A DNA stretch of 32,000 bases from Patescibacteria group bacterium (GTDB taxonomy: Bacteria; Patescibacteriota; Patescibacteriia; UBA2591; UBA6264), in the NCBI GenBank assembly GCA_028713575.1, contig JAQTOB010000003.1, forward strand, positions 30,001 through 62,000. The letters run 5' to 3'. This document shows, piece by piece, positions 2,704 through 25,873 of the stretch. Within the stretch, counting starts at the first letter, position 1, and every line of letters begins with the position of its first letter. Both the position numbers and the translations under genes were made by a program. The notes under the pieces are model-generated. The model had not been told where the DNA came from. It did no database searches and worked only from the letters and a program-made list of their open reading frames with translations.

Positions 2704-3849
2704 TTAAATTATCCTTAATATTCCTTTGATTAATTCCCGTGTTTCTATAACAGTTAAATCTCTTGCTCCTTTGTTGTTTATAAAATAATAAAATCCATTA
2801 ACCACTTCATCTTGTTTAAAAACTCCCGTTAGGCCATTAACCGTTTTAAATAAATGAGGTCCATTAGAAAGATAAAAATAATTTTGGTCTTGGTATAAAA
2901 AAATTTCTTCAAAATCTTGTTGAAACGTTAATTGCTTTATTTCAAGTCCATCTGTCGTCTTGTTTATAAATTCATAAACATTGGGGTCTATTATTTGTTC
3001 AACGTAACTCGTTCCATCTGGCAAAAAAACCGTTTTTTCAACCGGATTTTTAACGGCCATTCCTGTTTTTATTTTATTTTCAAAGCTTTCCATTGTTTCT
3101 CTTTTTAAATAAATTAAAACGTATTCTTGGTTGGTTCTGTTCTCTGTTTTTGGCCAATTTAAAAAAATATTGGAAATATCTTTTTGGTTATCAATTTTTA
3201 AATTAAAAAACAAACTATTCAGCCCCAGAAAAGAAAAACAATTTATTTTGACTTTTGTTTCTAGACAATTGTTTAGATTTGTTTTTTCGGGATAAAAATG
3301 ACCCTTAATCCAGAAGGGCGTCGTATCTAAAGAAAAAGAAAATTTTTCTTTAAAAGAATTTTTATAAAAAATGTCCTGTTGAAAAATATTTTCCAACGAA
3401 ACCATCCAAACCCGCCTATTTATCTTTTTAACCGCAAACTCCTTTATTTGTTTGTCAATTAAAGAAGGGTCTGTCCATTGTTTTATTTTTAAAAGAAAAA
3501 CTAAATTAAACTCCTTATTATCGTTCCCTCCGCCTTCTTTCTTAAAACCAATCAAACCAACTTCGTCTAAATGTTCTTTATTTTCCAAAATCCTTCTTAT
3601 TAATAAAGAATTTTCGTTTGTTGTCAATAATCCTTCTAAAAAAATATTTGTTTTAGTGTTCTTAAGCCAATCATTTCCGATTTTGCCCGCACGACGAATA
3701 CTATTTAAATCAAAATGTAAATAAAAATCCTCCTGCCCAGAAACAAGTCCCATTAAGCTGTCTGGATGCCAAAAAAAACGAATAAAAACAAGAAAAAAAA
3801 GGGCCAAAAAAAATAAAAGAAAAATTGTTGTTTTTTTAACAAAAGACAT
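2704..3849 (-). CDS. hypothetical membrane-anchored protein (381 aa)
   Basis: Long ORF with N-terminal TM (TTIFLLFFLALFFLVFIRFFW). No recognisable catalytic motif. Confidence 0.55.
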   Translation of the reverse strand: MSFVKKTTIFLLFFLALFFLVFIRFFWHPDSLMGLVSGQEDFYLHFDLNSIRRAGKIGNDWLKNTKTNIFLEGLLTTNENSLLIRRILENKEHLDEVGLIGFKKEGGGNDNKEFNLVFLLKIKQWTDPSLIDKQIKEFAVKKINRRVWMVSLENIFQQDIFYKNSFKEKFSFSLDTTPFWIKGHFYPEKTNLNNCLETKVKINCFSFLGLNSLFFNLKIDNQKDISNIFLNWPKTENRTNQEYVLIYLKRETMESFENKIKTGMAVKNPVEKTVFLPDGTSYVEQIIDPNVYEFINKTTDGLEIKQLTFQQDFEEIFLYQDQNYFYLSNGPHLFKTVNGLTGVFKQDEVVNGFYYFINNKGARDLTVIETRELIKGILRII

Positions 3850-3913
3850 AAAGGCATAATAGAAAAAATAAAAAACCTTGTCAATCTTTTTAAAATCGTT
3901 ATAATAATGCCAT

Positions 3914-4990
3914 ATGAAAAACTTAACAAATAAAAAAGATTATCTTCAATTGGTAAAATCCTTTCCTCGCCTTGGAGATTTAATTGAGGGAACTGTTATT
4001 GAAATAGGTCGAAATGAAATTTATTTAGATATTAATGGCTTAACCACGGGTATTGTTCGGGGACCTGAGCTTTTTGATGAATCGGGAGAATTTTCTAACC
4101 TTAAAAAGGGAGATAAAGTTTTTGCTACTGTGATTGATTTGGAAAATGAAAAGGGATTAATTGATCTTTCTTTTCGGCAAGCCAGCCATAAAAAGGCTTG
4201 GAATAATTTAGAAGAAATCAGTAAAAATAAAAACCTCTTATCAGTTAAGATAACCGAAGCAAATAAAGGAGGATTGATTGTTTATGCTGGCAAAATTCAA
4301 GGATTTTTGCCCGTTTCTCAATTAAAACCAGATCATTATCCGCGCGTGGAAGAAGGAAATAAAAATAGAATTTTAGAAAAATTAAAAGAATTTGTTGGGC
4401 AAGAGATGAAGGTTAAAATAATCACTATTGACGAAAAAACCGGCAAATTAATTGTTTCAGAGAAAGAAACCTCAACCACAGAAAAAAAACTCGCCAGCAA
4501 ATATAAAATAGGCGATGTAGTGGAAGGAAAAATTAGCGGATTGGTTGATTTTGGCGCTTTTATAACCTTTGGCAAAGACCAAGAAGGATTGGTTCATATT
4601 TCCGAATTAGCCTGGCAAAGAATTGACCATCCTCAAGATGTAGTAAAAATTGGAGATAAAATAAAGGCAGAAATTATCGGTATTACCGACGATGGAAAAA
4701 TTTCTCTTTCCATTAGAAGACTGTTAAAAGACCCATGGAAAACGGTTAAAGAAAAATATAAAATAGGGCAAATAATTGATGGAAAAGTTTTAAAAATAAA
4801 TCCCTTTGGCCTTTTTGTGGAGATTGACCCCGACATTCACGGGTTAGCTCACATCTCTGAACTCTCAGACAAACCGATTAAAGACGCTTCTTGTGTTGCC
4901 CAAATGGGGGAAACACTAAAATTTAAAATTGTTTCTATTGAGCCAGACGACCATCGCCTGGGTCTTTCTTTAATTAAAAAAAATAAATGA
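3914..4990 (+). CDS. rpsA: S1 RNA-binding-domain protein (ribosomal protein S1-like, about four S1 repeats)
   Basis: Repeated S1/OB units (G..V.G.V...G.FV.L...GL.HISEL), for example GDVVEGKISGLVDFGAFITFG..QEGLVHISEL and GQIIDGKVLKINPFGLFVEI.PDIHGLAHISEL. The stop overlaps the ftsH start (ATGA at 4987-4990). Confidence 0.8.
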   Translation: MKNLTNKKDYLQLVKSFPRLGDLIEGTVIEIGRNEIYLDINGLTTGIVRGPELFDESGEFSNLKKGDKVFATVIDLENEKGLIDLSFRQASHKKAWNNLEEISKNKNLLSVKITEANKGGLIVYAGKIQGFLPVSQLKPDHYPRVEEGNKNRILEKLKEFVGQEMKVKIITIDEKTGKLIVSEKETSTTEKKLASKYKIGDVVEGKISGLVDFGAFITFGKDQEGLVHISELAWQRIDHPQDVVKIGDKIKAEIIGITDDGKISLSIRRLLKDPWKTVKEKYKIGQIIDGKVLKINPFGLFVEIDPDIHGLAHISELSDKPIKDASCVAQMGETLKFKIVSIEPDDHRLGLSLIKKNK

Positions 4991-6807
4991 AATCTTTTTT
5001 AAAAAATTTCCTTATTTTTTTAATTGTTTTCTTGATTATTTCTGGACTTTTTAGTCTGCTTAATTCTGGGGAAGGTGGCACCCAACAAATTAGCTTGAAT
5101 AATTTAGTTGAAAAAATAAAAGCCAAAGAAATTCAAGAAATTTTAATTGAAAAAGACCGTTTAAACATTATTTCTTTTGACCAAAAACGTTATTTTACTT
5201 TTAAAGAAGAAAATGAATCCCTGATTAGCGTTTTAACCGATTATGGCGTCTCGGCTGAAGACCTCTCTTTAATCTCTATTAGTGTTGAAAACACAAAAGG
5301 ACGAGAAACTTTTTTTAATGTTATTCTTCCTGTTCTTTTTCCTTTATTTTTATTGATTATTATCATTTTCTTTTTTTCCAAACAAGTCCGCGGCGCCGGG
5401 ATGCAGGCTTTCAAATTTGGAGAAAGTCAAGCAAGAAAAATAAATCCCCAAGATAAAAGAGTTAAAACCACTTTTCAGGATGTGGCTGGAATAAGAGAAG
5501 CAAAAGACGATTTATCTGAAATTGTTGATTTTCTTAAAAATCCAAAAAAATACATTAAATTGGGGGCAAAAATACCAAAAGGCGTTTTGTTAATTGGACT
5601 TCCGGGTTGCGGGAAAACCCTTTTGGCCAGGGCGGTTGCAGGAGAAGCTGGTGTCCCATTTTTTCATATTTCTGGGTCAGAATTTATTGAACTTTTTGTT
5701 GGAGTTGGCGCCTCTCGGGTAAGAGATCTTTTTTCTAAAGCTAAAAAAAACCTTCCCGCCATTGTTTTTATTGATGAATTAGACGCTGTTGGTCGTCAAC
5801 GTGGAGCCGGGTTGGGCGGATCACACGATGAAAGAGAACAAACCCTAAATCAAATTCTCGTTGAATTAGATGGTTTTGAACCTAATATTGGCCTGATTGT
5901 TTTAGCCGCAACCAATCGACCGGACATTTTAGACCCCGCACTTCTGCGACCCGGCAGATTTGACCGGAAAGTTATTCTTGATTTACCAGACCTAAAAGAC
6001 CGCGAGGCTATTCTTAAAATTCACGCCAAAGGAAAACCCTTGTCAAAAGAAATTAATCTTCAAAAAGTTGCAGAAAGAACGCCTGGTTTTACCGGGGCGG
6101 ACCTAGAAAGCCTTTTGAATGAAGCTTCTATCTTAGCGGCAAAAAGAAATAAAAATAATATTGGCCAATTTGAAATTTTTGAAAGCATAGAAAGAGTTCT
6201 TTTAGGGCCTGAAAGAAAAAGCCATGTTCTTTCGGAAAAAGAAAAAGAAATAGTGGCTTATCATGAGGCCGGACACGCTATTATTAGCTATTTATTGCCG
6301 GGATGCGACCCTGTACAAAAAATCTCTATAATTTCTCGCGGCCAAGCCGCTGGCTATACTTTAATTATGCCGGAGAAGGAAAAATCCCTTAAAACAAAAT
6401 CTGAGTTTTTAGATAATCTTAGCGCTTTATTGGGAGGGTATGTAGCGGAAGAAAAATTTTTTGGAGAAGTAACAACCGGGGCGGCCAATGACCTTCGTCG
6501 GGTTACTCAATTAACCCGCAAATTAATAACCGAATATGGAATGAGTGAAACGTTTGGTCCGCGAACTTTCGGAGAAAAAGAGGAGCTGGTCTTTCTTGGT
6601 CGAGAAATTTCTGAACGAAGAGATTATTCTGAAGAATTCGCCAAAATGATAGATAAAGAGGTTTCTTCTTTTATTAAATTATGCCATAAGAGGGCCTCAG
6701 ATTTATTAGAAAAAAATAAAAATAAATTAAAAACCTTAGCCATTTTTTTACTAAAAAACGAAACAATTGAAAGGGAACAATTTGTTAAAATAATGAAGAA
6801 AAAATGA
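4987..6807 (+). CDS. ftsH: ATP-dependent zinc metalloprotease FtsH
   Basis: Two N-terminal TMs, Walker A GLPGCGKT, Walker [31 protein letters not shown], and zinc site HEAGHAI. Confidence 0.95.
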
Positions 6808-9406: not shown

Positions 9407-10171
9407 CTATTTTAAAATTTTTAATGGGTCAATGATTTTTTTAAGGTCTTCTTCGCTTCCATAACCAGCAACAGCGCCTTGTTCTTTTAAAATATTAAAA
9501 TGCAGGTGAGCGGGCCAGCCGCCGTTTTCCAGACTAAACGATTTTCCCACTTGACCAATAATTTCCCCTTTTTTGATTAAGTCGCCGATAATAGGAGTTT
9601 CTCTTGGAGCGGCTAAATGTCCATAAAGAGAATAAAAGATTTTTCCAGCCAGTTTGTGTTGTATAAGAATCATATTCCCATAACCCCCTTCTCCGCGATA
9701 AAGTTTTTGGCCACTTTTTTCAAATAATTCTTGTTCATTTTTTCTAATTATTTCCATTCCCGCTATTTTCCCATCTTGTACAGCAAAAACCTCTAACCCA
9801 CTTTCTACAACGTAATCAATTCCTAAATGAAGATTAGTTTTTTCGTGGCTAGAAGGTTGTCCGGGCTTTTGATTGTAATATATTCTTTCTTCTCCCGACT
9901 TTAAAATAAAACCATTTTTAGCCATTTTTTTAAACTGTTCCGTTTCTACTGCTGCTGCTAAATCAGTTGTTCTAAATTTTTTTATTAATTCTTCAAAAGG
10001 GTAAACTGGCATTTTTTTTGCGTTTTTTAATGGTTCGTCGCAGGTTTTACGGAGTAGTTCAATTAATTTTTTGTCATCCCTTGAGGCTTCCGGGTTAACA
10101 ATACCCTTTTCTTTACTATAAGATTTTTCTATGGGCTTTAAAAAATATTCAAATGGTCTTTTGAAAAACAT
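9407..10171 (-). CDS. M23-family (LytM-like) metallopeptidase
   Basis: HLGIDY, GYGNMILIQH, YGHL and PAHLHFNI match the M23 H.xxxD / HxH zinc-site pattern. Confidence 0.8.
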   Translation of the reverse strand: MFFKRPFEYFLKPIEKSYSKEKGIVNPEASRDDKKLIELLRKTCDEPLKNAKKMPVYPFEELIKKFRTTDLAAAVETEQFKKMAKNGFILKSGEERIYYNQKPGQPSSHEKTNLHLGIDYVVESGLEVFAVQDGKIAGMEIIRKNEQELFEKSGQKLYRGEGGYGNMILIQHKLAGKIFYSLYGHLAAPRETPIIGDLIKKGEIIGQVGKSFSLENGGWPAHLHFNILKEQGAVAGYGSEEDLKKIIDPLKILK

Positions 10172-10391: not shown

Positions 10392-10463
10392 TGCCTCTGA
10401 AGGGAATCGAACCCCTATTTACAGTTCCGAAGACTGTCGTGTTGTCCATTACACCACAGAGGC
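10392..10463 (-). tRNA. tRNA-Arg (anticodon UCG), no encoded CCA
   Basis: GCCTCTG-TG-GTGT-AATGGACA-ACAC-G-ACAGT-CTTCGGA-ACTGT-AAAT-AGGGG-TTCGATT-CCCTT-CAGAGGC-A (72 nt). It lies 7 nt downstream of the pilT stop. Confidence 0.85.
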
Positions 10464-10469
10464 CCGACA

Positions 10470-11516
10470 TTATTCTTTTATTATTTCATCTGGGTAATTA
10501 GCGTAATTTAAAGCTGTTTTTAAGTCAATTTCGCCGAGATGATAGAGTTTTTTAAGGTCTTGTTCTAATGTGGACATTCCATCCTGGCTACTAGTTTGTA
10601 AAACCGACCTAATTTGGGAGATTTTATTTTCTCTAATCAAATTAGCAATCGCTGGCGTATTAAAAAGAACTTCTCTGGCCGCCACCCTTCCGCTATTAAT
10701 TTTAGGGAGTAAGTGTTGGGAAATAATACACTTAAGCGCCATAGATATTTGTAATCTTATTTGTTTTTGTTGGTCAGTAGGAAAAATGTCAATAATTCGG
10801 TCAATGGTTTGCGGGGCATTTGGAGTATGAAGGGTGGCAAAAATTAGATGTCCGGTTTCAGCCAGAGTGACGGCCAAAGAAATGGTTTCTAAGTCCCTCA
10901 TTTCACTAACCAAAATAATATCAGGGTCTTGGCGAACAATATGTTTAAGGGCCGATTGGAAAGAATTCATATCTTTTCCTAATTCTCTTTGGGCGATAAT
11001 GCTTTTTTGAGAAGAAAAAACATATTCAATAGGGTCTTCTAAGGTAATAATATGGCAAGACCTTTTTGTGTTAATATAATTAATTAAGGCTGCAAGGGTG
11101 GTTGATTTTCCACATCCAGTTGGTCCAGTAACTAGAACAAGCCCGTCTTTAAGGTTAATTAATTTATAAATTGATTCAGGCATTTTGATTTCTTCCATAG
11201 AAGGAATGAGCGACGAGATTAAGCGGGCCGATAGGGCTATCTTACCTTTTTCCCAAAAAACGCTTATTCTAAAACGAATACCGCTTTTAATTTGATAAGA
11301 AAATTCTAAAGTTTTTTCTTTAAAAAGAATTTCTTTTTGATTTTCATTAATAATCGGTTCAATTAATTTTAGGATGTCCTCATGCTTTAAAACAGGCCAA
11401 TTTTTAATTGGCTGAAGCAGTCCGTTGATTCTAAAGAAAACAGACAAATCAGAGCTTAAATGGACATCAGAAGCATTTAAAGAAGTTGCGTTGCTAAATA
11501 TTTCTTCAAGGCCCAT
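10470..11516 (-). CDS. pilT: type IV pilus retraction ATPase PilT (twitching motility protein)
   Basis: ASDVHL, Walker A GPTGCGKST, Asp/His boxes (TLEDPIEY, ILVSEMRD, GHLIFATLHT), and a length of 348 aa. Confidence 0.9.
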   Translation of the reverse strand: MGLEEIFSNATSLNASDVHLSSDLSVFFRINGLLQPIKNWPVLKHEDILKLIEPIINENQKEILFKEKTLEFSYQIKSGIRFRISVFWEKGKIALSARLISSLIPSMEEIKMPESIYKLINLKDGLVLVTGPTGCGKSTTLAALINYINTKRSCHIITLEDPIEYVFSSQKSIIAQRELGKDMNSFQSALKHIVRQDPDIILVSEMRDLETISLAVTLAETGHLIFATLHTPNAPQTIDRIIDIFPTDQQKQIRLQISMALKCIISQHLLPKINSGRVAAREVLFNTPAIANLIRENKISQIRSVLQTSSQDGMSTLEQDLKKLYHLGEIDLKTALNYANYPDEIIKE

Positions 11517-14607: not shown

Positions 14608-14834
14608 TTTTTTAAAAGAAAATAAATCAATTAAACGTGGACAAATAATTTGATATTATTTATAATAAAAAAATAGTGATAAATGTTTTATATCTCTATT
14701 TTTTAAAATTTAAAATTTAAACATGCGGATAAGCATTGACGCTTGTCCCGACACTAAATCTACGGATTAGTGTGGAACTTCGCTGTTTTGGAAAGAACAA
14801 GGCCTTATGGCATAAATTTTTAATCTTAACAAAT

Positions 14835-15359
14835 ATGCGGATAGGTATTGACGCTCGCTTCTTAGGACTTAAGGTTGGAATTGGGCGTTACACGGAAAAA
14901 TTAATAGAACACTTAGAAAAGAATGATAATCAGAATGATTATTTTATTTTTGTTAAAAAACAGAATTTCAACCTCTATTGTCCAACCAATAAGAGATTTC
15001 ATAGAGTTTTGGCTGACGACCAATGGTATTCGTTCAGGGAACAAATATTTTTTCCCCACCGGCTTTATAAACAAAGACTGGACTTAGTGCATTTTCTTCA
15101 TTTTAATGTTCCTTTACTGTATTTTGGAAAATTTATTATAACTATTCACGATTTAACACAAAGAAATCTAACCAAAGAAGCAAGCAAACGGCCTTGGCTA
15201 TTTTTTCTATTTAAAAAGGCGGCCTATCGGCTGATCATATGGAGCGCTTTAAGGAGGGCCGAAAAGATTATCACAGTATCCAATTTTACTAAACAACAAA
15301 TAATTAAATATTATAACGTGAATCCCGAAAAAATATCAGTTGTTTATGAGTCCTGTTAA
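14835..15359 (+). pseudogene. GT4-family glycosyltransferase, N-terminal fragment
   Basis: MRIGIDARFLGLKVGIGRYTEKLIEHL...ITIHDL...ITVSNFTKQQIIKYYNV.PEKISVVYE is a typical GT4 N-domain. It ends at TAA 15357-15359, just where the inter-domain linker is expected. Confidence 0.65.
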
Positions 15360-15426: not shown

Positions 15427-15981
15427 ATGAATCAGCATAAAAAAAACAACCCTTACTTACTTTACGTGGGCAACTCCTGTCCCCATAAAAATCTTGAACG
15501 TTTACTTAGGGCTTTTAATGTTGTTTCAAAAGAAATTTCCGATTTGAATTTGATTTTAGTGGGCAAAATAGATTATTTTTATAAAAGAACACAGAAACAG
15601 GCGGAAAAATTAAAATTAAGTAACAAGGTGATATTCGTCGGCGAATTGTCAGACGAAGAATTAAACAAGGCCTATCAGGACGGTTTGGCCTATGTTTTTC
15701 CTTCTTTGTCCGAGGGGTTTGGCCTACCTGGCTTGGAAGCAATGAAACAAGATTTACCAGTAATCAGTTCAAATAAAGAGCCTTTGCCTGAAATTTACGG
15801 TCAGGCGGCGATTTATTTTAATCCTGAAGATATCCAGGACATGGCTAAAAAAATTTTAGAAGTTGTTACCAATGGCCCTTTAAGAGAGAGGTTGAAGATT
15901 TTAGGAAAAAATCAGGTAAAAAAATATTCTTGGAACAAGTGCTCTAAGCAAATATTAGAAATTTACAAGCAGATTTTATAA
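15427..15981 (+). pseudogene. GT4-family glycosyltransferase, C-terminal fragment (different frame from the N-terminal fragment)
   Basis: PYLLYVGNSCPHKNLERLLRAF...LILVGK...FPSLSEGFGLPGLEAMKQDLPVISSN...PE is the GT4 C-domain with the E..G.P..EAM motif. The N fragment, a short middle open stretch and the C fragment use three different frames within about 70 nt. Confidence 0.65.
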
Positions 15982-16127: not shown

Positions 16128-16616
16128 TTATAATTTTTCAGTCCCGATCATTTTTGGCTCAAAATTTTCATGCGTTAATTTTGAAACGGGTTGGATTGAT
16201 TTAGACAATTTTTCCACATAATGGTATTGCCATTTTTTTTCTTGTTTAAAAAATTCTTTTTTCCATTTATTAAACTGTTTCTCTTTTAACCCATATAAGC
16301 GACCATCAAGGGCCGGAATAATAATTTTTTTGATTACTTCTCTTTTTCGGACCAATAAAACAATTTGATGTCGTCGGATAGAAGTTTTTGTTTTATCTTG
16401 ATATTCATATTCATAAATAGATTCTTTTAGGCCTAGACTATTTTTAAGGGCAAAAAGAAGCTTTTTATCATTATGGCGCATTCTAATTTGGAAAACGGCA
16501 TTTTTTGAATTTTTATTACCATAAGTCCAGCTAAAATATCCATTTTCACAAATTAGGCCGGCAATAAAATCAAAAGAAAGGTTTTTAACATTTGTAATAT
16601 TGGGAATCTTTGACAT
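16128..16616 (-). CDS. free-standing single-motif LAGLIDADG homing endonuclease (162 aa)
   Basis: FDFIAGLICENGYFSW matches the LAGLIDADG dodecapeptide (..AGfIdgeGcF). The downstream pattern F.I.....D..LL..LKNSLG.....Y........V......I.KIIIP..D...L.G.K..QF..W is typical of I-CreI-like homodimeric enzymes. It is not embedded in any recognisable host gene, intron or intein. Confidence 0.8.
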   Translation of the reverse strand: MSKIPNITNVKNLSFDFIAGLICENGYFSWTYGNKNSKNAVFQIRMRHNDKKLLFALKNSLGLKESIYEYEYQDKTKTSIRRHQIVLLVRKREVIKKIIIPALDGRLYGLKEKQFNKWKKEFFKQEKKWQYHYVEKLSKSIQPVSKLTHENFEPKMIGTEKL

Positions 16617-16755
16617 AAGATATGTTTATTTAGGAATGTTCCTCGCGGAACATTTCGTTATACAGTATAACAAAATTAAGAAATAAAGTAAATAGATAAA
16701 TCAATAATATCCCTTTTTAATAATATATTATTAGCGTCGTAAATTATAAATAATT

Positions 16756-17249
16756 AATGCGAATTATCTTTAAAAACCAATTTTACGAATGGTTTTTACA
16801 TTATATAGGGGCACGAGTTTAATATAATGGTTATAATGTGAGCCTTTAATTAAACCTATATTATATAAGCAGGCCAAAGCTCTCATGGGGCCAGTTCCCT
16901 AAAAGTAGTCAAAATAGTTCTAAATTTAAAAAATCCTTCTAAAACGCTTTACTGATAAGACTTTTAGAAGGGTATTTTGGGGGGACAGTCCCCTTTTTGA
17001 ATAAATGCGAATTATCTTTAAAAACCAATTTTACGAATGGTTTTTACATTATATAGGGGCACGAGTTTAATATAATGGTTATAATGTGAGCCTTTAATTA
17101 AACCTATATTATATAAGCAGGCCAAAGCTCTCATGGGGCCAGTTCCCTAAAAGTAGTCAAAATAGTTCTAAATTTAAAAAATCCTTCTAAAACGCTTTAC
17201 TGATAAGACTTTTAGAAGGGTATTTTGGGGGGACAGTCCCCTTTTTGAA
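16756..17249. repeat. perfect tandem direct duplication, 2 x about 245 nt with 248-bp period
   Basis: 16756..17000 is identical base for base to 17004..17248 by my reading; the copies are separated by taa. Each unit contains hairpins AAAAACCA/TGGTTTTT and CCTTCTAAAA-17 nt-TTTTAGAAGG, and ends GGGGGGACAGTCCCCTTTTT. Confidence 0.9.
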
Positions 17250-17297
17250 GAAAGTCTCTTTTTTAAAGAAGCCCCGAGCGAGGCGGCTGATTTAATA

Positions 17298-17572
17298 TGG
17301 TGGACTTAGGCAGAATTGAGCTGCCGTCTCCGCAACTCGCTCCGTTAGAAATTTAGTATGTGAATCACCGCGCCAAATTCTTAAATAGATAATTCCATTT
17401 TATTTTGAAAGCACTTACAATAATTAGAAGTATAGATTTAGTGTAGGAGTGGACTCGACGAGAATCGAACTCGTATTTCCGCAATGCGAATGCGGTGTAC
17501 TGCCGTTGTACTACGAGCCCTAATTTTCTAACGGGGTGAAAATGCGGCGCACCACTGCTGTACTATAAGCCC
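17298..17572 (-). other. interrupted tRNA-Ala-like gene: 5' half at 17543-17572, 3' half with encoded CCA at 17298-17334, with a 208-nt intervening region
   Basis: 5' half GGGCTTA-TA-GTAC-AGCAGTG-GTGC-G-CCGCA. 3' half TGCGG-AGAC-GGCAG-CTCAATT-CTGCC-TAAGTCC-ACCA. Acceptor pairs 7/7 with G3:U70, the anticodon stem pairs 5/5 and the T stem 5/5. See findings. Confidence 0.6.
17450..17520 (-). tRNA. tRNA-Ala (anticodon CGC), no encoded CCA
   Basis: GGGCTCG-TA-GTAC-AACGGCA-GTAC-A-CCGCA-TTCGCAT-TGCGG-AAAT-ACGAG-TTCGATT-CTCGT-CGAGTCC-A (71 nt). The cloverleaf is perfect and G3:U70 is present. Confidence 0.9.
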
Positions 17573-17602
17573 ATTTGTCAAAATAAAATAAATTTTTATC
17601 AA

Positions 17603-17676
17603 TGCCCCCGGAAGGACTCGAACCCTCAGTCTTTCCCTTAGGACGGGACCGCTCTAATCCATTGAGCTACGGGGGC
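17603..17676 (-). tRNA. tRNA-Arg (anticodon CCU), no encoded CCA
   Basis: GCCCCCG-TA-GCTC-AATGGATTA-GAGC-G-GTCCC-GTCCTAA-GGGAA-AGACT-GAGGG-TTCGAGT-CCTTC-CGGGGGC-A (74 nt). G27:A43 is a mismatch and G32 is unusual. Confidence 0.8.
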
Positions 17677-17743
17677 TTAGTTCTTTTTCGTTTTGCATTG
17701 GAGCCCTGAGGGGACAAATAGCCAGCCCGGAATAATCAATTTA

Positions 17744-17890
17744 TTATTTTATAAACAACTCAGCTAAATTTAAAAGGAAGTCGGTTTGAGAATCAAATAT
17801 AAACAAAACAATCAAGATAGTGAGCATAAGGGCCACAACAAAGAGAATTTTTTTAAATTCTTTTTTTACATTTTTTTGTTCATTTTCCAT
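17744..17890 (-). CDS. possible small single-TM protein (48 aa), below the ORF-track cutoff
   Basis: MENEQKNVKKEFKKILFVVALMLTILIVLFIFDSQTDFLLNLAELFIK: charged N-terminus plus one hydrophobic helix. It lies upstream of the tRNA cluster on the same strand. No homology is recognised. Confidence 0.3.
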   Translation of the reverse strand: MENEQKNVKKEFKKILFVVALMLTILIVLFIFDSQTDFLLNLAELFIK

Positions 17891-21714: not shown

Positions 21715-21987
21715 ATGTTGAAAGGAGCTCTAAATGTTATTGTAATTATAATTTTTATCTTTATTTTTTTGGTTTGGTTTCTTGATTTAACCGCCTCTAA
21801 CCAGACGGAAGGCAATTTAATTAAAATGCTTGAGGGGGCGGTAATTGAAGCGGGGAAATCTTTTAAAGAATTTAAAGATAACATAAACCTGTTTAGGGGC
21901 GAAAAATCTTTCGTGCCATTAAATGAAACAGAAATAGATATTTTAAAAGAAAAAATTTTACAGCATGAAGATGAAGAAAAAAAATAA
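21715..21987 (+). CDS. hypothetical small membrane protein (90 aa)
   Basis: N-terminal TM ([16 protein letters not shown]). It overlaps the gyrA start by 23 nt. No motif is recognised. Confidence 0.4.
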
Positions 21988-24900
21988 AAAACCTGAAATT
22001 AATAAAAAAGAAAATTTGTTAAACGGGCCTTCTATAGAAATTAGAAAAGAAAAGATAGAGTTAGTTGACATGGAGCAAGAAGTCAGCCGCTGTTATATAG
22101 ATTACGCCATGAGTGTTATTGTTTCTCGCGCTCTTCCTGACGTGCGTGATGGTTTAAAGCCGGTTCATCGACGAATCCTCTATGCAATGTTTGAAATGGG
22201 CTTAAAACCCAATGTTAAATATAGAAAATCGGCAACAGTGGTAGGAGAAGTTTTGGGGAAATTTCATCCACATGGCGACGCCGCGGTTTATGACGCCATG
22301 GTAAGAATGGCTCAGGACTTTTCTTTACGTTATCCTTTAATTGATGGCCAAGGGAACTGGGGGTCTAATGAAGATGAGGCGGCCCATATGAGATACTGTA
22401 TTGGCGGAAATTCATTGGTTATTACTAATAGATGTTTAGAGAGGATAGAGAACATCTCAAAGAAAGAGAATATAAACATCAAAGTACTTTCCTTTGACAA
22501 TAAAATAAACAGGGCGTCAAAATGGTTTGATTCGGGACTCCACCCCACTTTAACCGTTAGGACGTTCAGGGGGATGACTCTTTGTGGAAGCTTTAACCAT
22601 CCCATTTTGACCTGGGATTTAAACGGAGAAAAGCCGGGATTCAAGTGGAAGTTGTTGGAAAATTTGGAGAAAAACGATTACGCGGTGATTTCCAGGAGCG
22701 ATCCGCTTTGGTCCGGGAAAGACCCTCTTTTGAAAAAATTCCATCAAATCCCCGTAAACAAAAGGACGAAAGTTCACGTTTTGCCCAAGAAAATGACACC
22801 GGAATTGGCTTTTATTCTCGGAGCGATAATCGCCGAAGGATATACGGCTAAGGGATATCGCAATTCGGGGAGCAAAAAATGGCAGCCGCCGTATATCGGA
22901 TTTTGTAACAGTAATGAAGAATTTATAGAAAAATTCAAGCAGAATTTCAAAAAAACATTTCCAGACTGCCGTTTACATGAATTTAAACGCCGGTCGCAGG
23001 GGCGGACCAGAAAAAAATACGTTTTGGAAGTCCGCTCAAAACACGTAGTCGATTTTTTAATAAACCTCGGTTTGAAACATTGTCGGGCCGGAGACAAAAC
23101 TGTTCCTCCGGCGTTGTTCCACGCTTCTCCCAAAACGATAACCACTTTTCTTAGGGCCTATGCGGAGGGCGAAGGCAGCGTTTATGAGAGCGTGAATAAA
23201 AAAAGAAAAAGCGTTTATTCAACCGTCGTTTTGGCTTCCAAGGGAAAACGATTATTGGAAGAGATTCAAATTATTCTGTTAAGATTAGGGATAGTCTCTT
23301 CCTTCAGGAACAAAAAACAGAGAAATACACACAGATTATTTATCTTTGGTTACGATAATCTGAATCTGTTTCGGCAACATATCAATTTTGTTTCTCACGA
23401 CAAAATTAGTCGTCTTCTGAAATCCATACAGAATAACGGGGGAGATAAAGCCATATCCAAAGCGGATTATATCCCTTTCATGACAGAGTATATAAGAGAT
23501 AAATACAAGAAAAAGCGGTCCGTGATTCACGAGGACCAAAAGTGGATAGAAAAGCACAATTTTGATAGATTGCCGAAAATAAAAAATTACTGGGACAAAA
23601 TCAAATCCATTCTCGATGAAGGCGATGTAAAATTACTCAATAGTCTAATAAAAAATAATTATTTATTTGACAAAATTGTTTCAATCAGAAAGAGCGGTTT
23701 TCAAAAAGTCTATTCTCTAAAAGTAGAAAGCGATTGTCATTCTTTTATTTCCAATGGTTTTATCAGCCACAACACCGAGTGTCGTCTGGCGCCCATTGCC
23801 GAAGAGGTTTTGGCTGACATTGACAAAAAAACAGTTGACCTAATTTCCAACTATGATGGAACATTAAAAGAGCCCGTTGTTCTTCCAACAAAAATTCCCA
23901 CTTTAATTCTCAATGGTTCAATGGGAATCGCCGTAGGGATGGCCACTAATATTCCCCCTCACAATCTAACGGAAGTTTGCAACGCCCTAAATTATTTAAT
24001 TGACCATCCTGAGGCAGAAATAGAAGAAATTTTTAAATTTATTAATGGGCCCGATTTTCCAACGGGCGGCATTATTTTTAATTCTGATCAGATAAAACAA
24101 GTTTACGCCATTGGTAAGGGCCCGATTTTAATGAGAGCTAAAACAGAAATTATTGAAAAAAATCTTAGTAGTTTTTGCATCATTATCAACGAACTTCCTT
24201 ATCAAGTTAATAAAGCCGTTCTTTTACAAAAAATTGCCGAGTTAGTAAAAGACAAAAGAATTGAGGATATTAAGGATATTCGCGACGAGTCAGACAGAGA
24301 GGGAATCAGAATTGTTATTGAGCTTAAAAAGGGAGCATATCCTCAAAAGGTTTTAAACAAACTTTTTAAGCTTACTGATTTACAAATGACTTTTCATGTT
24401 AATATGGTTTCTTTAATTAATGGAATCCAGCCAAGAGTTATGGGATTAAAGGGGGTTTTAGAAGAGTATATTCAACACCGTCAAATTATTGTTAGACGAA
24501 GAAGTGAGTATGATTTGGAAAAAACAAACGAAAGAATTCACATTTTAAAAGGGTTGCAAACGGCATTGGACCATTTAGACGAGATTATAAAAATAATCAG
24601 ACATTCTCAGGACAGAGAAACTGCTAAAAATAATTTAATAAAAAAATATAGATTAACCGAGGTTCAGGCTCAGGCAATATTAGAGACAAAACTTCATCAA
24701 TTAGCTAACTTAGAAAGACAAAAAATTAAAGAGGAATTAAAAGAAAAAATTCAAAAAGCCAAAGAATTAGAAACATTACTCGCTCAACCCAAAATGATTT
24801 TAGACATTATAAAGAAAGAAACCAAAGAATTAAAAGAAAAATATGGGGACGAAAGAAGGACCCAGGTGGTTTCTCAAGGGGTGGAAAATTTTAAGGAAGA

Positions 24901-25873
24901 AGATTTAGTCCCCAATGAGCCGGCGATTATTATTATTACTCAAGACGGTTATATAAAAAGAATTTCTCCAGAAAATTTTAAAATTCAGGCGAGAGGAGGA
25001 AAGGGGGTGACGGGATTAGAAATCAAAGAAGAAGATAGAGTTCAACATTTAATTGCTACAACCACTCATGCTAATGTTTTGTTTTTTACCACAAAAGGAA
25101 AAGTTTTTCAATTAAAAACCTATGACGTTCCTCAGGCACAACGGGCCGCCAAAGGACAGGCGTTAGTTAATTTTTTAGAAACAGGACCACAAGAAAAAAT
25201 ATCTTCAATTTTGCCGATTTCAGATTTGAAAAATTATAAAAATTTAGTGATGGTTACGCGACAAGGGGTTATTAAAAAAGTTTCCATTAATGATTTTATT
25301 AACGTTAGAAGGTCGGGGTTGATTGCCATTAAATTAAAAGACAATGATGTTTTAAGGTGGGTGAAGCCCACAACAGGCAATGATGAAATAGTTTTGATTT
25401 CGGCCCTAGGACAGGCTATTAAATTTAAAGAAAAAGATTTAAGACCAATGGGGCGGGGAGCCACAGGCGTGAGGGGGATGAGAATAAAAAATCAGGATTT
25501 TATTGTTGGGATGGATGTTTATCAGGCCGGAAAAACAAATATTAATAACAAATTATTAGTAATTACTGAAAATGGCTTTGGAAAAATGACATTAATAAAA
25601 GATTATCGTTTTCAGCATCGGGGAGGGTCCGGCACTAAAACCGCTAAAATTACAGATAAAACAGGGAAAATTGTTGATGCTAGACTAATTAATGAAAAAG
25701 ATTTGCCCAATCACATAAAAGGAGATTTATTACTTATTTCTCAGCAGGGGCAGACCATCCGCTTGCCGATTAAAAGCATTCCCACCATGAGCCGGTCAAC
25801 CCAGGGAGTGAGATTAATGCGCTTTTCAGCCAAAAACGGGAAGGACCAAGTAAGCTCTTCAACCTTAATTTAA
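21965..25873 (+). CDS. gyrA: DNA gyrase subunit A, interrupted by an in-frame intein (extein about 843 aa)
   Basis: [58 protein letters not shown] then intein then [30 protein letters not shown], and C-terminal beta-pinwheel repeats ([42 protein letters not shown]). Confidence 0.95.
22397..23773 (+). mobile_element. GyrA intein (459 aa) with a LAGLIDADG (dodecapeptide) homing-endonuclease domain, inserted directly after the catalytic Tyr
   Basis: Starts with Cys (MRY|CIGGNSLV). Block B is GSFNHPILT, the DOD motifs are [13 protein letters not shown] and [12 protein letters not shown], and blocks F/G are [22 protein letters not shown]|T. It is collinear in my recollection with the Mycobacterium xenopi GyrA intein (CITGDALV...GTANHPLL...YSLRVDTADHAFITNGFVSHN). 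Confidence 0.9.

Follow-up and report, generated by a model that had tools for sequence, protein, structure and literature searches.

How can a complete tRNA gene lie within the anticodon loop of a second tRNA gene, and which of the two still works? This question is raised by a locus of a Patescibacteria group bacterium (assembly GCA_028713575.1, contig JAQTOB010000003.1, positions 30,001 to 62,000). The whole stretch of 32,000 nucleotides that was analysed is called here the window. On its minus strand, positions 17572-17298 (275 nt) form an outer tRNA-Ala-like cloverleaf in which a 208-nt insert replaces the anticodon loop, and this insert contains an intact tRNA-Ala(CGC) between a complementary leader and trailer. 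The answer favored below, and considered probable, is that a small mobile cassette bounded by inverted repeats and carrying a replacement tRNA split the resident tRNA-Ala(CGC), leaving a young relic on both sides of the insertion.

Anatomy of the nested locus

All the features of the unit lie on the minus strand. The outer 5' half (17543..17572), recognized from its sequence and fold, comprises the acceptor strand GGGCTTA, the D arm and the anticodon-stem strand CCGCA. It is followed by a 22-nt leader (17521..17542), made of TT, TTCAC and the inverted-repeat arm CCCCGTTAGAAAATTA, and by the inner tRNA-Ala(CGC) (17450..17520), the cargo of the cassette, which has no encoded CCA. The trailer, 115 nt in all (17335..17449), consists of a lineage-specific extra segment of about 90 nt (17356..17449), delimited by comparison with the 120-nt insert of a sister lineage, and of a cassette end (17335..17355) bearing the other inverted-repeat arm TAAATTTCTAACGGAG and the CGAGT junction. 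This junction occupies the place expected for the anticodon CGC and A37. The outer 3' half (17301..17334) provides the anticodon-stem strand TGCGG, the variable loop AGAC, the T arm GGCAG-CTCAATT-CTGCC, the acceptor strand TAAGTCC and a final A, and it is completed by an encoded CCA (17298..17300). Directly past this half, a terminator-like hairpin with a T-rich tail (17271..17284) is the probable end of the transcription unit. Immediately upstream of the nested unit lies tRNA-Arg(CCT) (17603..17676), a neighbor kept in all relatives and probably co-transcribed with it. No open reading frame (ORF) of at least 40 aa was found in the insert.

The inner tRNA scores 65.2 bits (E 3e-12) with the Rfam tRNA model, in agreement with ARAGORN, and is the only tRNA called by these two tools within 17572-17298; the outer gene is not called by the intron mode of ARAGORN. 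An initial annotation of this locus had delimited the stems, the two halves and an intact inner tRNA, and every one of these sequence statements holds. The imperfect inverted repeat which it placed at the ends of the insert was recovered by a repeat finder as arms of 20 nt, 85% complementary, and the leader-trailer duplex reaches -15.8 kcal/mol (z = -6.2). It had further predicted an RNA helix joining the halves. The unconstrained minimum free energy fold of the 275 nt contains both cloverleaves and this connecting helix, at -77.3 kcal/mol (z = -3.3), a stability attained by none of 200 shuffled sequences. When the outer halves were joined in silico, ARAGORN accepted a tRNA for seven of the eight junction choices. 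The anticodon of the joined gene reads CGA, UGA, UUA or UUC and never xGC, as anticipated for the simplest junction.

Mis-assembly, a possibility raised at the outset, is excluded, and three independent assemblies carry the nested locus. The sequence of the window is found unchanged across the locus in a 517-kb JGI contig (L081) and in a Logan contig (L083), and the contig of an NCBI metagenome-assembled genome (MAG; L082) matches the window from inside the insert onward.

The resident gene and its empty sites

Syntenic loci were retrieved through the orthologs of a neighboring DAGK-like protein. In two relatives (L094 and L091, 67-69% protein identity), a plain uninterrupted tRNA-Ala(CGC) follows tRNA-Arg; these are empty sites of the kind that the initial annotation had proposed to look for. 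The T arm of the outer gene, GGCAG/CTGCC, is found in both relatives and its variable loop AGAC in L091, in which the tRNA 3' half matches the outer 3' half at 31 of 34 positions versus 26 of 34 for the inner tRNA. In a closer relative (L090, 82%), the outer 5' half is followed by an intact TTCGCAT loop at the contig end. The 5' half of L090 is identical at 26 of 30 positions to that of the window, and at 29 of 30 to that of the sister lineage described below. Because uninterrupted orthologs stand at the same place in relatives, the outer gene is, as judged from synteny, the resident tRNA-Ala(CGC), to which the insert was added.

The sister lineage (L087, L088 and L089; 81%) presents the same nesting, with an insert of 120 nt composed of a 22-nt leader, a 71-nt tRNA and a 27-nt trailer. 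Between the window and L087, the inner tRNA differs by two compensatory changes, C6:G67 to T:A in the acceptor stem and C13:G22 to T:A in the D stem, as expected of a working gene. The encoded CCA attributed to the outer gene is present in the window but is not a conserved trait, ACTCTG being found at its place in L087. The extra trailer segment of about 90 nt gave BLAST matches only in near-identical strains. A search through the glycosyltransferase neighbor found no more close lineages.

A recurrent family of nested tRNA units

Metagenome contigs were scanned with a degenerate tRNA-Ala pattern fitting the 3' halves of both the inner and the outer gene, and at least 120 loci were obtained, most of which are ordinary Patescibacteria tRNA-Ala(CGC) genes. 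The same nested architecture, with a leader and a matching 5' half upstream, and a complete tRNA and a short trailer ahead of the 3' half, was observed in about 20 of 120 Patescibacteria loci among the matches listed. The resulting frequency of one in six is rough, since the loci were selected on a tRNA-Ala pattern. The locus had been presented as a one-off structure, a view contradicted by this recurrence. The same design exists for tRNA-Pro(CGG) (L146, ~3840-4070), tRNA-Val(CAC) (L111, ~5950-6260) and tRNA-Ile(GAU) (L149 and L174), and the anticodon of the cargo is that of the target wherever the relic loop is readable. Nesting can be two or three levels deep (L097, L204 and L166), and only the innermost gene of such arrays scores as a tRNA in Rfam. 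The genes found around the nested loci are bacterial housekeeping genes.

Four insertion points were distinguished within the anticodon arm. The window type, between positions 33 and 34, is shared by the window, L087, L097 and L176, and reads ..TT^TT(T/C)AC-CCCCGT..tRNA..ACGGGG-C(G/A)(A/G)G^T.., the carets marking the junctions. The other insertions fall between positions 35 and 36 (TTCR^..^CAT; L111, L185 and L204), between positions 37 and 38 (TTCGCA^..^T; L116, L117 and L127), and between positions 26 and 27, ahead of the anticodon stem (L194). The ..ACGGGG-CGAGT junction is common to the window and to units in L097 (twice), L176 and L087, and the cassette termini are conserved across the Ala, Pro, Val and Ile units. 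The arms differ in sequence from unit to unit. Their complementarity is found at z <= -2.6 in 19 of 20 units, L116 being weaker (z = -1.8). In an alignment of the arms (A2), anchored by hand at CCCC/GGGG, 96% of the cells pair and double changes are seen in 13 of the 17 pairs, a result reached by none of 500 shuffles; registers slid along the same alignment give about 45% pairing.

Other observations were made on these loci. In the multi-level arrays (L097, ~9890-10160; L204; L166, ~10400-10970), the innermost tRNA-Ala is intact, the middle gene is split, and further displaced 3' halves are present whose 5' partners are decayed or gone. In L111, the D loop of the relic is itself interrupted by about 100 nt. 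Directly 3' of the tRNA-Ala genes or relic 3' halves of L115, L123, L127, L148, L176 and L166, on contigs that are otherwise unrelated, the same motif is found, C(C)AT(T)AGACGA(T/C)T. Position 55 of the T loop is normally an invariant U; among 90 intact tRNA-Ala(CGC) genes of Patescibacteria, 12 have a C there (TCCGATT), for example those of L098, L103, L104 and L124.

Probable mobility of the cassette

The window cassette is defined by its leader CCCCGTTAGAAA.., a cargo with the acceptor strand GGGCTCG and the T arm ACGAG, and its trailer ..TTTCTAACGG(A/G)G. It is found again within outer genes of quite dissimilar sequence (L113, L197 and L203), on contigs of 36-48% guanine plus cytosine (GC), and the same leader, cargo and trailer are thus found across hosts of 33-48% GC. 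Taken separately, the leader is also present in other outer genes of L113, L197, L203 and L176, and the cargo type in L113 and L197. This cargo type exists in addition as a stand-alone gene (L183 and L205). The closest match of an inner tRNA is generally not its own outer gene, and some inner tRNAs are nearly identical to the outer halves of other units. This dissimilarity between inner and outer genes, the recurrence in different outer genes and the stand-alone cargo fit a scheme in which cassettes travel with their cargo and each cargo later becomes a target. The initial annotation had compared the insert to a miniature inverted-repeat transposable element (MITE) bringing its own replacement tRNA, and this comparison gains support from the empty sites and from the recurrence of the cassette.

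Cargo-less hairpins of the form CCC..GGGG(CAGGCG), about 35-75 nt long, were also noticed between positions 26 and 27, at the boundary of the D arm and the anticodon stem (L097, L113, L146, L166 and L203). The relic 5' halves of L127 and L166 contain a homologous composite insertion of about 75 nt between positions 29 and 30, in the 5' strand of the anticodon stem, which suggests that whole nested arrays have been inherited or transferred together. Viral contigs and phage genomes gave no match, and a phage origin was rejected on this basis. The models of the integron attC site, of IS200/IS605 and of serine or tyrosine att sites were likewise rejected, as they do not agree with the core orientation and hairpin layout of the units or with the missing overlap or duplication.

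Proposed explanation and decay of the outer genes

In the proposed explanation, the resident tRNA-Ala(CGC) would have been cut in its anticodon loop after U33, with the loss or replacement of CGCA. The insert would be a small non-coding cassette with a length of 208 nt here and a basic form of 120 nt, in which a complete tRNA-Ala(CGC) is framed by a leader (TTCAC-CCCCGT...) and the trailer complementary to it (...ACGGGG-CGAG). The family of cassettes to which it belongs would target the anticodon arm of tRNA genes. Every member would carry a tRNA with the anticodon of the gene destroyed, and the insertion would be tolerated because of this shared anticodon. The inner tRNA would be the working gene, and the outer halves a young pseudogene still able to fold. 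The unit would be transcribed together with the upstream tRNA-Arg. The leader-trailer helix and the relic stems would close the outer cloverleaf and keep the relic halves off the inner tRNA, which would be released by RNase P and a 3' endonuclease, CCA being added afterwards. The cassette itself would move as DNA by means of a site-specific enzyme provided in trans. If the two ends of the cassette were fused, a palindromic site (..ACGGGG-spacer-CCCCGT..) would arise, a layout that hints, speculatively, at a circular intermediate and a site-specific recombinase.

The status of the outer genes was addressed by comparing a curated set of them with intact tRNA-Ala genes of the same loci, 90 distinct ones in all. 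Acceptor-stem mismatches occur in 7 of 16 outer genes and in 3 of 90 intact genes (p = 4e-5), and anticodon-stem mismatches in 5 of 16 and 0 of 90 respectively (p = 4e-5). The G3:U70 pair, kept in 90 of 90 intact genes, is lost in two outer genes (L141 and L206). One half is missing from five outer genes (in L097, L146, L154 and L204, the contig-end case L176 being left out), and about eight have received extra insertions, two defects seen in none of the intact genes. On the strength of these stem mismatches, lost G3:U70 pairs, missing halves and further insertions, the outer genes are as a class, in sequence terms, pseudogenes, and that of the window a young one. The window gene is among the best preserved and has no stem mismatch. 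It carries C54, versus T54 in 90 of 90 intact relatives, its D loop differs from that of L090 by several changes, and CGCAT is replaced by CGAGT. The early suspicion that the outer gene might be a dead relic is supported by the decay of the class, by C54 and by the altered loop.

Several points weigh against the mobile cassette. No transposase or recombinase was found at the window locus. No recurrent one was found among the ORFs neighboring eight nested loci, of which only two have such a gene, a tyrosine integrase directly adjoining the array of L166 (11159-12079, minus strand) and a large serine recombinase adjoining the unit of L176 (254-1279, plus strand). No target-site duplication or direct repeat was seen at the junctions of the window and of the inspected units, and no second copy of the cassette was found within the window. 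The covariation of the arms is equally compatible with an RNA helix and with terminal repeats of the DNA. Hand curation was used for the unit tables, the class assignments and alignment A2, and the metagenome frequency rests on at least 120 loci, among the matches listed. Saturation is nearly reached at four-fold degenerate sites when the window is compared with L087 (33-56% identical), yet the outer halves are identical at 56 of 64 positions, the leader and the trailer at 19 of 22 each, and all the outer stems are intact in both. The sequences just outside the outer gene are much less conserved, with 19 of 30 and 18 of 40 identical positions.

This conserved outer structure has three possible accounts: a recent or independent acquisition of the cassette, a transfer between lineages, or a selection acting on the structure. 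Recent or separate entry, or exchange, is favored by the free decay of outer genes elsewhere; the window and L087 lineages co-occur in the same sample series. Selection on the closed outer structure is favored by a compensatory change in the helix and by a pair-restoring polymorphism among L087-type strains, both detailed in the following section.

Alternative explanations

The selective account leads to a first alternative, which is unlikely: after the insertion event of the proposed explanation, the outer halves and the leader-trailer helix would be kept by selection as a functional, non-decoding RNA scaffold around the inner tRNA. Such a scaffold may close around this tRNA, keep homologous halves from mispairing, or direct processing, for example as a stem of RNase III type. 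It would explain an identity of 86-88% in the outer halves, leader and trailer of lineages that are saturated at synonymous sites, with every outer stem intact in the window and L087. The helix shows one compensatory change, from C-G to U-A, and one of only two polymorphisms found in 1600 nt among the L087-type strains restores a C-G pair in it. In addition, pairing with the leader is better for the relic loop CGAGT than it would be for the ancestral CGCAT. At other loci, however, the outer halves are mismatched, truncated, interrupted by further insertions or missing while the inner tRNA is intact, and this decay indicates that a scaffold is dispensable. Recency, or transfer between co-occurring lineages, accounts for the conservation equally well.

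A second alternative, which is improbable, is that of a true intron or of a bacterial split tRNA, in which the outer pieces would be spliced or stay annealed after release of the inner tRNA. The product would be a second tRNA-Ala, or an alanine-accepting tRNA-like RNA devoid of an anticodon, both being forms of the same improbable hypothesis. If true, it would provide a bacterial counterpart of the archaeal split tRNAs, made by a mobile tRNA-carrying intron. The outer cloverleaf of the window is indeed perfect, including G3:U70 and the encoded CCA, and alanyl-tRNA synthetase does not require the anticodon. Several other units would restore their anticodon loop exactly on removal of the insert (TTCG^CAT, TTCGCA^T, CTGA^TAA and ^CGCAT), and the inserts occupy several positions of the anticodon arm, as in archaeal tRNAs with multiple introns. 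Against this hypothesis, the insertion points 26/27, 33/34, 35/36 and 37/38 differ in local structure and present no consistent splice motif. By-hand inspection found no bulge-helix-bulge at the window junctions, where the internal loop is of 7 x 5 nt, and none of the four insertion classes displays the 3-4-3 form of this motif. The joined loop of the window does not restore xGC, CCA is missing from the outer gene of L087, and outer genes decay throughout the class. The cargo-less hairpins are found only in relic (5') halves and in 0 of 90 intact tRNA-Ala genes, and an intron would not need a tRNA with the same anticodon.

Two forms of this hypothesis were set aside individually. The group I intron core (Rfam RF00028) gave no hit at E <= 10 in 17150-17750 and none in ten other nested loci at the gathering threshold; with this negative result and a sister insert of only 120 nt, a group I intron is ruled out. 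An archaeal-type intron is ruled out as well by the absence of a bulge-helix-bulge, the variable junctions, the decaying 'exons' and an anticodon that is not restored. The initial annotation had invoked the logic of the Nanoarchaeum split tRNAs. This functional interpretation is probably wrong, as the same observations, together with C54 and the lack of conservation of CCA, speak against it.

A purely local duplication or rearrangement of tRNA-Ala genes, without any mobile element, is very improbable. In its favor, tRNA-Ala(CGC) is the type of the inner and the outer gene alike, and they have the same anticodon stem. The outer genes of other units are nevertheless as close to the inner tRNA as its own outer gene is, the same cassette occurs in unrelated outer genes and hosts, and the termini are conserved across units of four specificities. 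This dissimilarity and the recurrence of the cassette largely refute a local origin.

Finally, a compact or two-piece transfer-messenger RNA (tmRNA), with the outer structure as its tRNA-like domain, is hardly credible and can be considered refuted in spite of the G3:U70 pair, the T arm, the ACCA end and the long helix in anticodon-loop position, since the orthologs are ordinary tRNA-Ala(CGC) genes and the models are negative: the tmRNA mode of ARAGORN finds nothing at normal and relaxed thresholds, Rfam yields a partial hit of 9.2 bits for a gathering score of 84, a full D arm is present, and pseudoknots and a credible tag frame are absent.

Genomic context of the window

The window comes from a Patescibacteria genome of low GC content (about 33%), an assignment backed by source annotation and by the presence of S6-SSB-S18, EF-P, PilT, a bactofilin and an intein-bearing GyrA. 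This GyrA (21965-25873, plus strand) is 1302 aa long and its intein contains a LAGLIDADG domain, whereas the GyrA proteins of L087, L090, L091 and L094 have about 840 aa and no intein. A free-standing LAGLIDADG-type ORF of 162 aa (16128-16616, minus strand) scores 22.9 bits with Pfam, just below the cutoff. Its homologs lie at the same place in L087, beside an interrupted tRNA, and in L094, beside an uninterrupted one; this gene is therefore ruled out as the driver of the insertion. Being of LAGLIDADG type, the same downstream protein is also ruled out as SmpB. Between this gene and the nested tRNA, a non-coding repeat of 248 bp is present twice in tandem without any mismatch (16752-17247). 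In L081, a near-identical strain, it is represented by a single copy and a fragment, and several assemblies break at this position.

A phosphoribosyltransferase gene separates tRNA-Arg(CCT) from tRNA-Ala(CGC) in L090, L091 and L094. It is missing from this place in the window and in L087, which are both nested lineages. A family-4 glycosyltransferase is encoded by two ORFs of the plus strand (14736-15359 and 15427-15981), corresponding to its N-terminal and C-terminal domains, and this split is kept in the relatives.

Significance

If the explanation by a mobile cassette is true, Patescibacteria host a family of tiny mobile elements that can enter an essential gene present in single copy because they bring a spare one with them, and this would constitute a new design among the ways in which mobile DNA exploits tRNA genes. 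As the cargo of one cassette would be the next target, tRNA genes nested at several levels would result. Such cassettes would open a route for the horizontal replacement of tRNA genes in reduced genomes. They would also account for orphan tRNA halves, and perhaps for contig breaks at tRNA loci, in assemblies of the Candidate Phyla Radiation (CPR), a break of this kind being seen in one MAG (L082). Finally, they would offer a bacterial comparison for the debated origin of the archaeal split and intron-containing tRNAs. Nested structures are invisible in current annotation because tRNA finders report the innermost gene only.

Comparison with known systems

Full-text searches of the literature brought up no account of tRNA genes that are nested or interrupted in CPR bacteria, the nearest reports dealing with mobile archaeal tRNA introns and CPR rRNA introns. 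As far as can be told, the tRNA-carrying insertion cassettes of Patescibacteria are apparently a recurrent and undescribed family.

Mobile tRNA introns and split or tri-split tRNAs are documented in archaea, in Thermoproteales, Nanoarchaeum and Caldivirga (PMC10714607, PMC4390854). They resemble the present units by the interruption of the anticodon arm at canonical and non-canonical positions, by flanks that pair into a helix, and, for the introns, by the evidence that inserts move between tRNA genes (PMC10714607, PMC4390854). In contrast, the host is here a bacterium, the insert holds a complete tRNA of the same anticodon, and the interrupted genes decay and have no bulge-helix-bulge.

Bacterial group I introns are found in tRNA anticodon loops, as in the cyanobacterial tRNA-Leu(UAA) and the Azoarcus tRNA-Ile. 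The likeness lies in the interruption of a bacterial tRNA anticodon loop by about 200 nt; the differences are the lack of a group I core, the basic form of 120 nt and the tRNA cargo. The tRNA-like domain of tmRNA shares with the outer gene the G3:U70 acceptor, the T arm, the CCA end and a helix in anticodon-loop position. Unlike a tmRNA, the present unit has no tag frame or pseudoknots, is negative with the tmRNA models and has ordinary tRNA-Ala genes as orthologs.

MITEs and the small palindromic elements of bacteria are short, non-coding, bounded by terminal inverted repeats and present in many genomic copies. The cassette shares with them its short non-coding nature, its terminal inverted repeats, its many copies across genomes, its cargo-less hairpin derivatives, and the presence of the same element in different insertion contexts. 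It differs from them by the absence of a target-site duplication, a target strictly limited to the tRNA anticodon arm, a tRNA cargo that matches this target, and a nesting several levels deep.

Integrative elements such as phages and islands enter tRNA genes while carrying a copy of the segment they displace, and their integrases fall into anticodon-loop, T-loop and 3'-end classes. The cassette differs from these elements by its size of 120-210 bp, by encoding only a whole tRNA, and by being bounded by inverted rather than direct repeats, with both halves of the old gene left around it. An integrase is moreover absent at the window locus, where the nearest ORF is the LAGLIDADG protein also found beside uninterrupted genes. 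The parallels are that a tRNA gene serves as the target, often at its anticodon loop, that the tRNA sequence brought in keeps the function, and that repeated insertion leaves arrays of displaced 3' fragments comparable to those of L097, L204 and L146.

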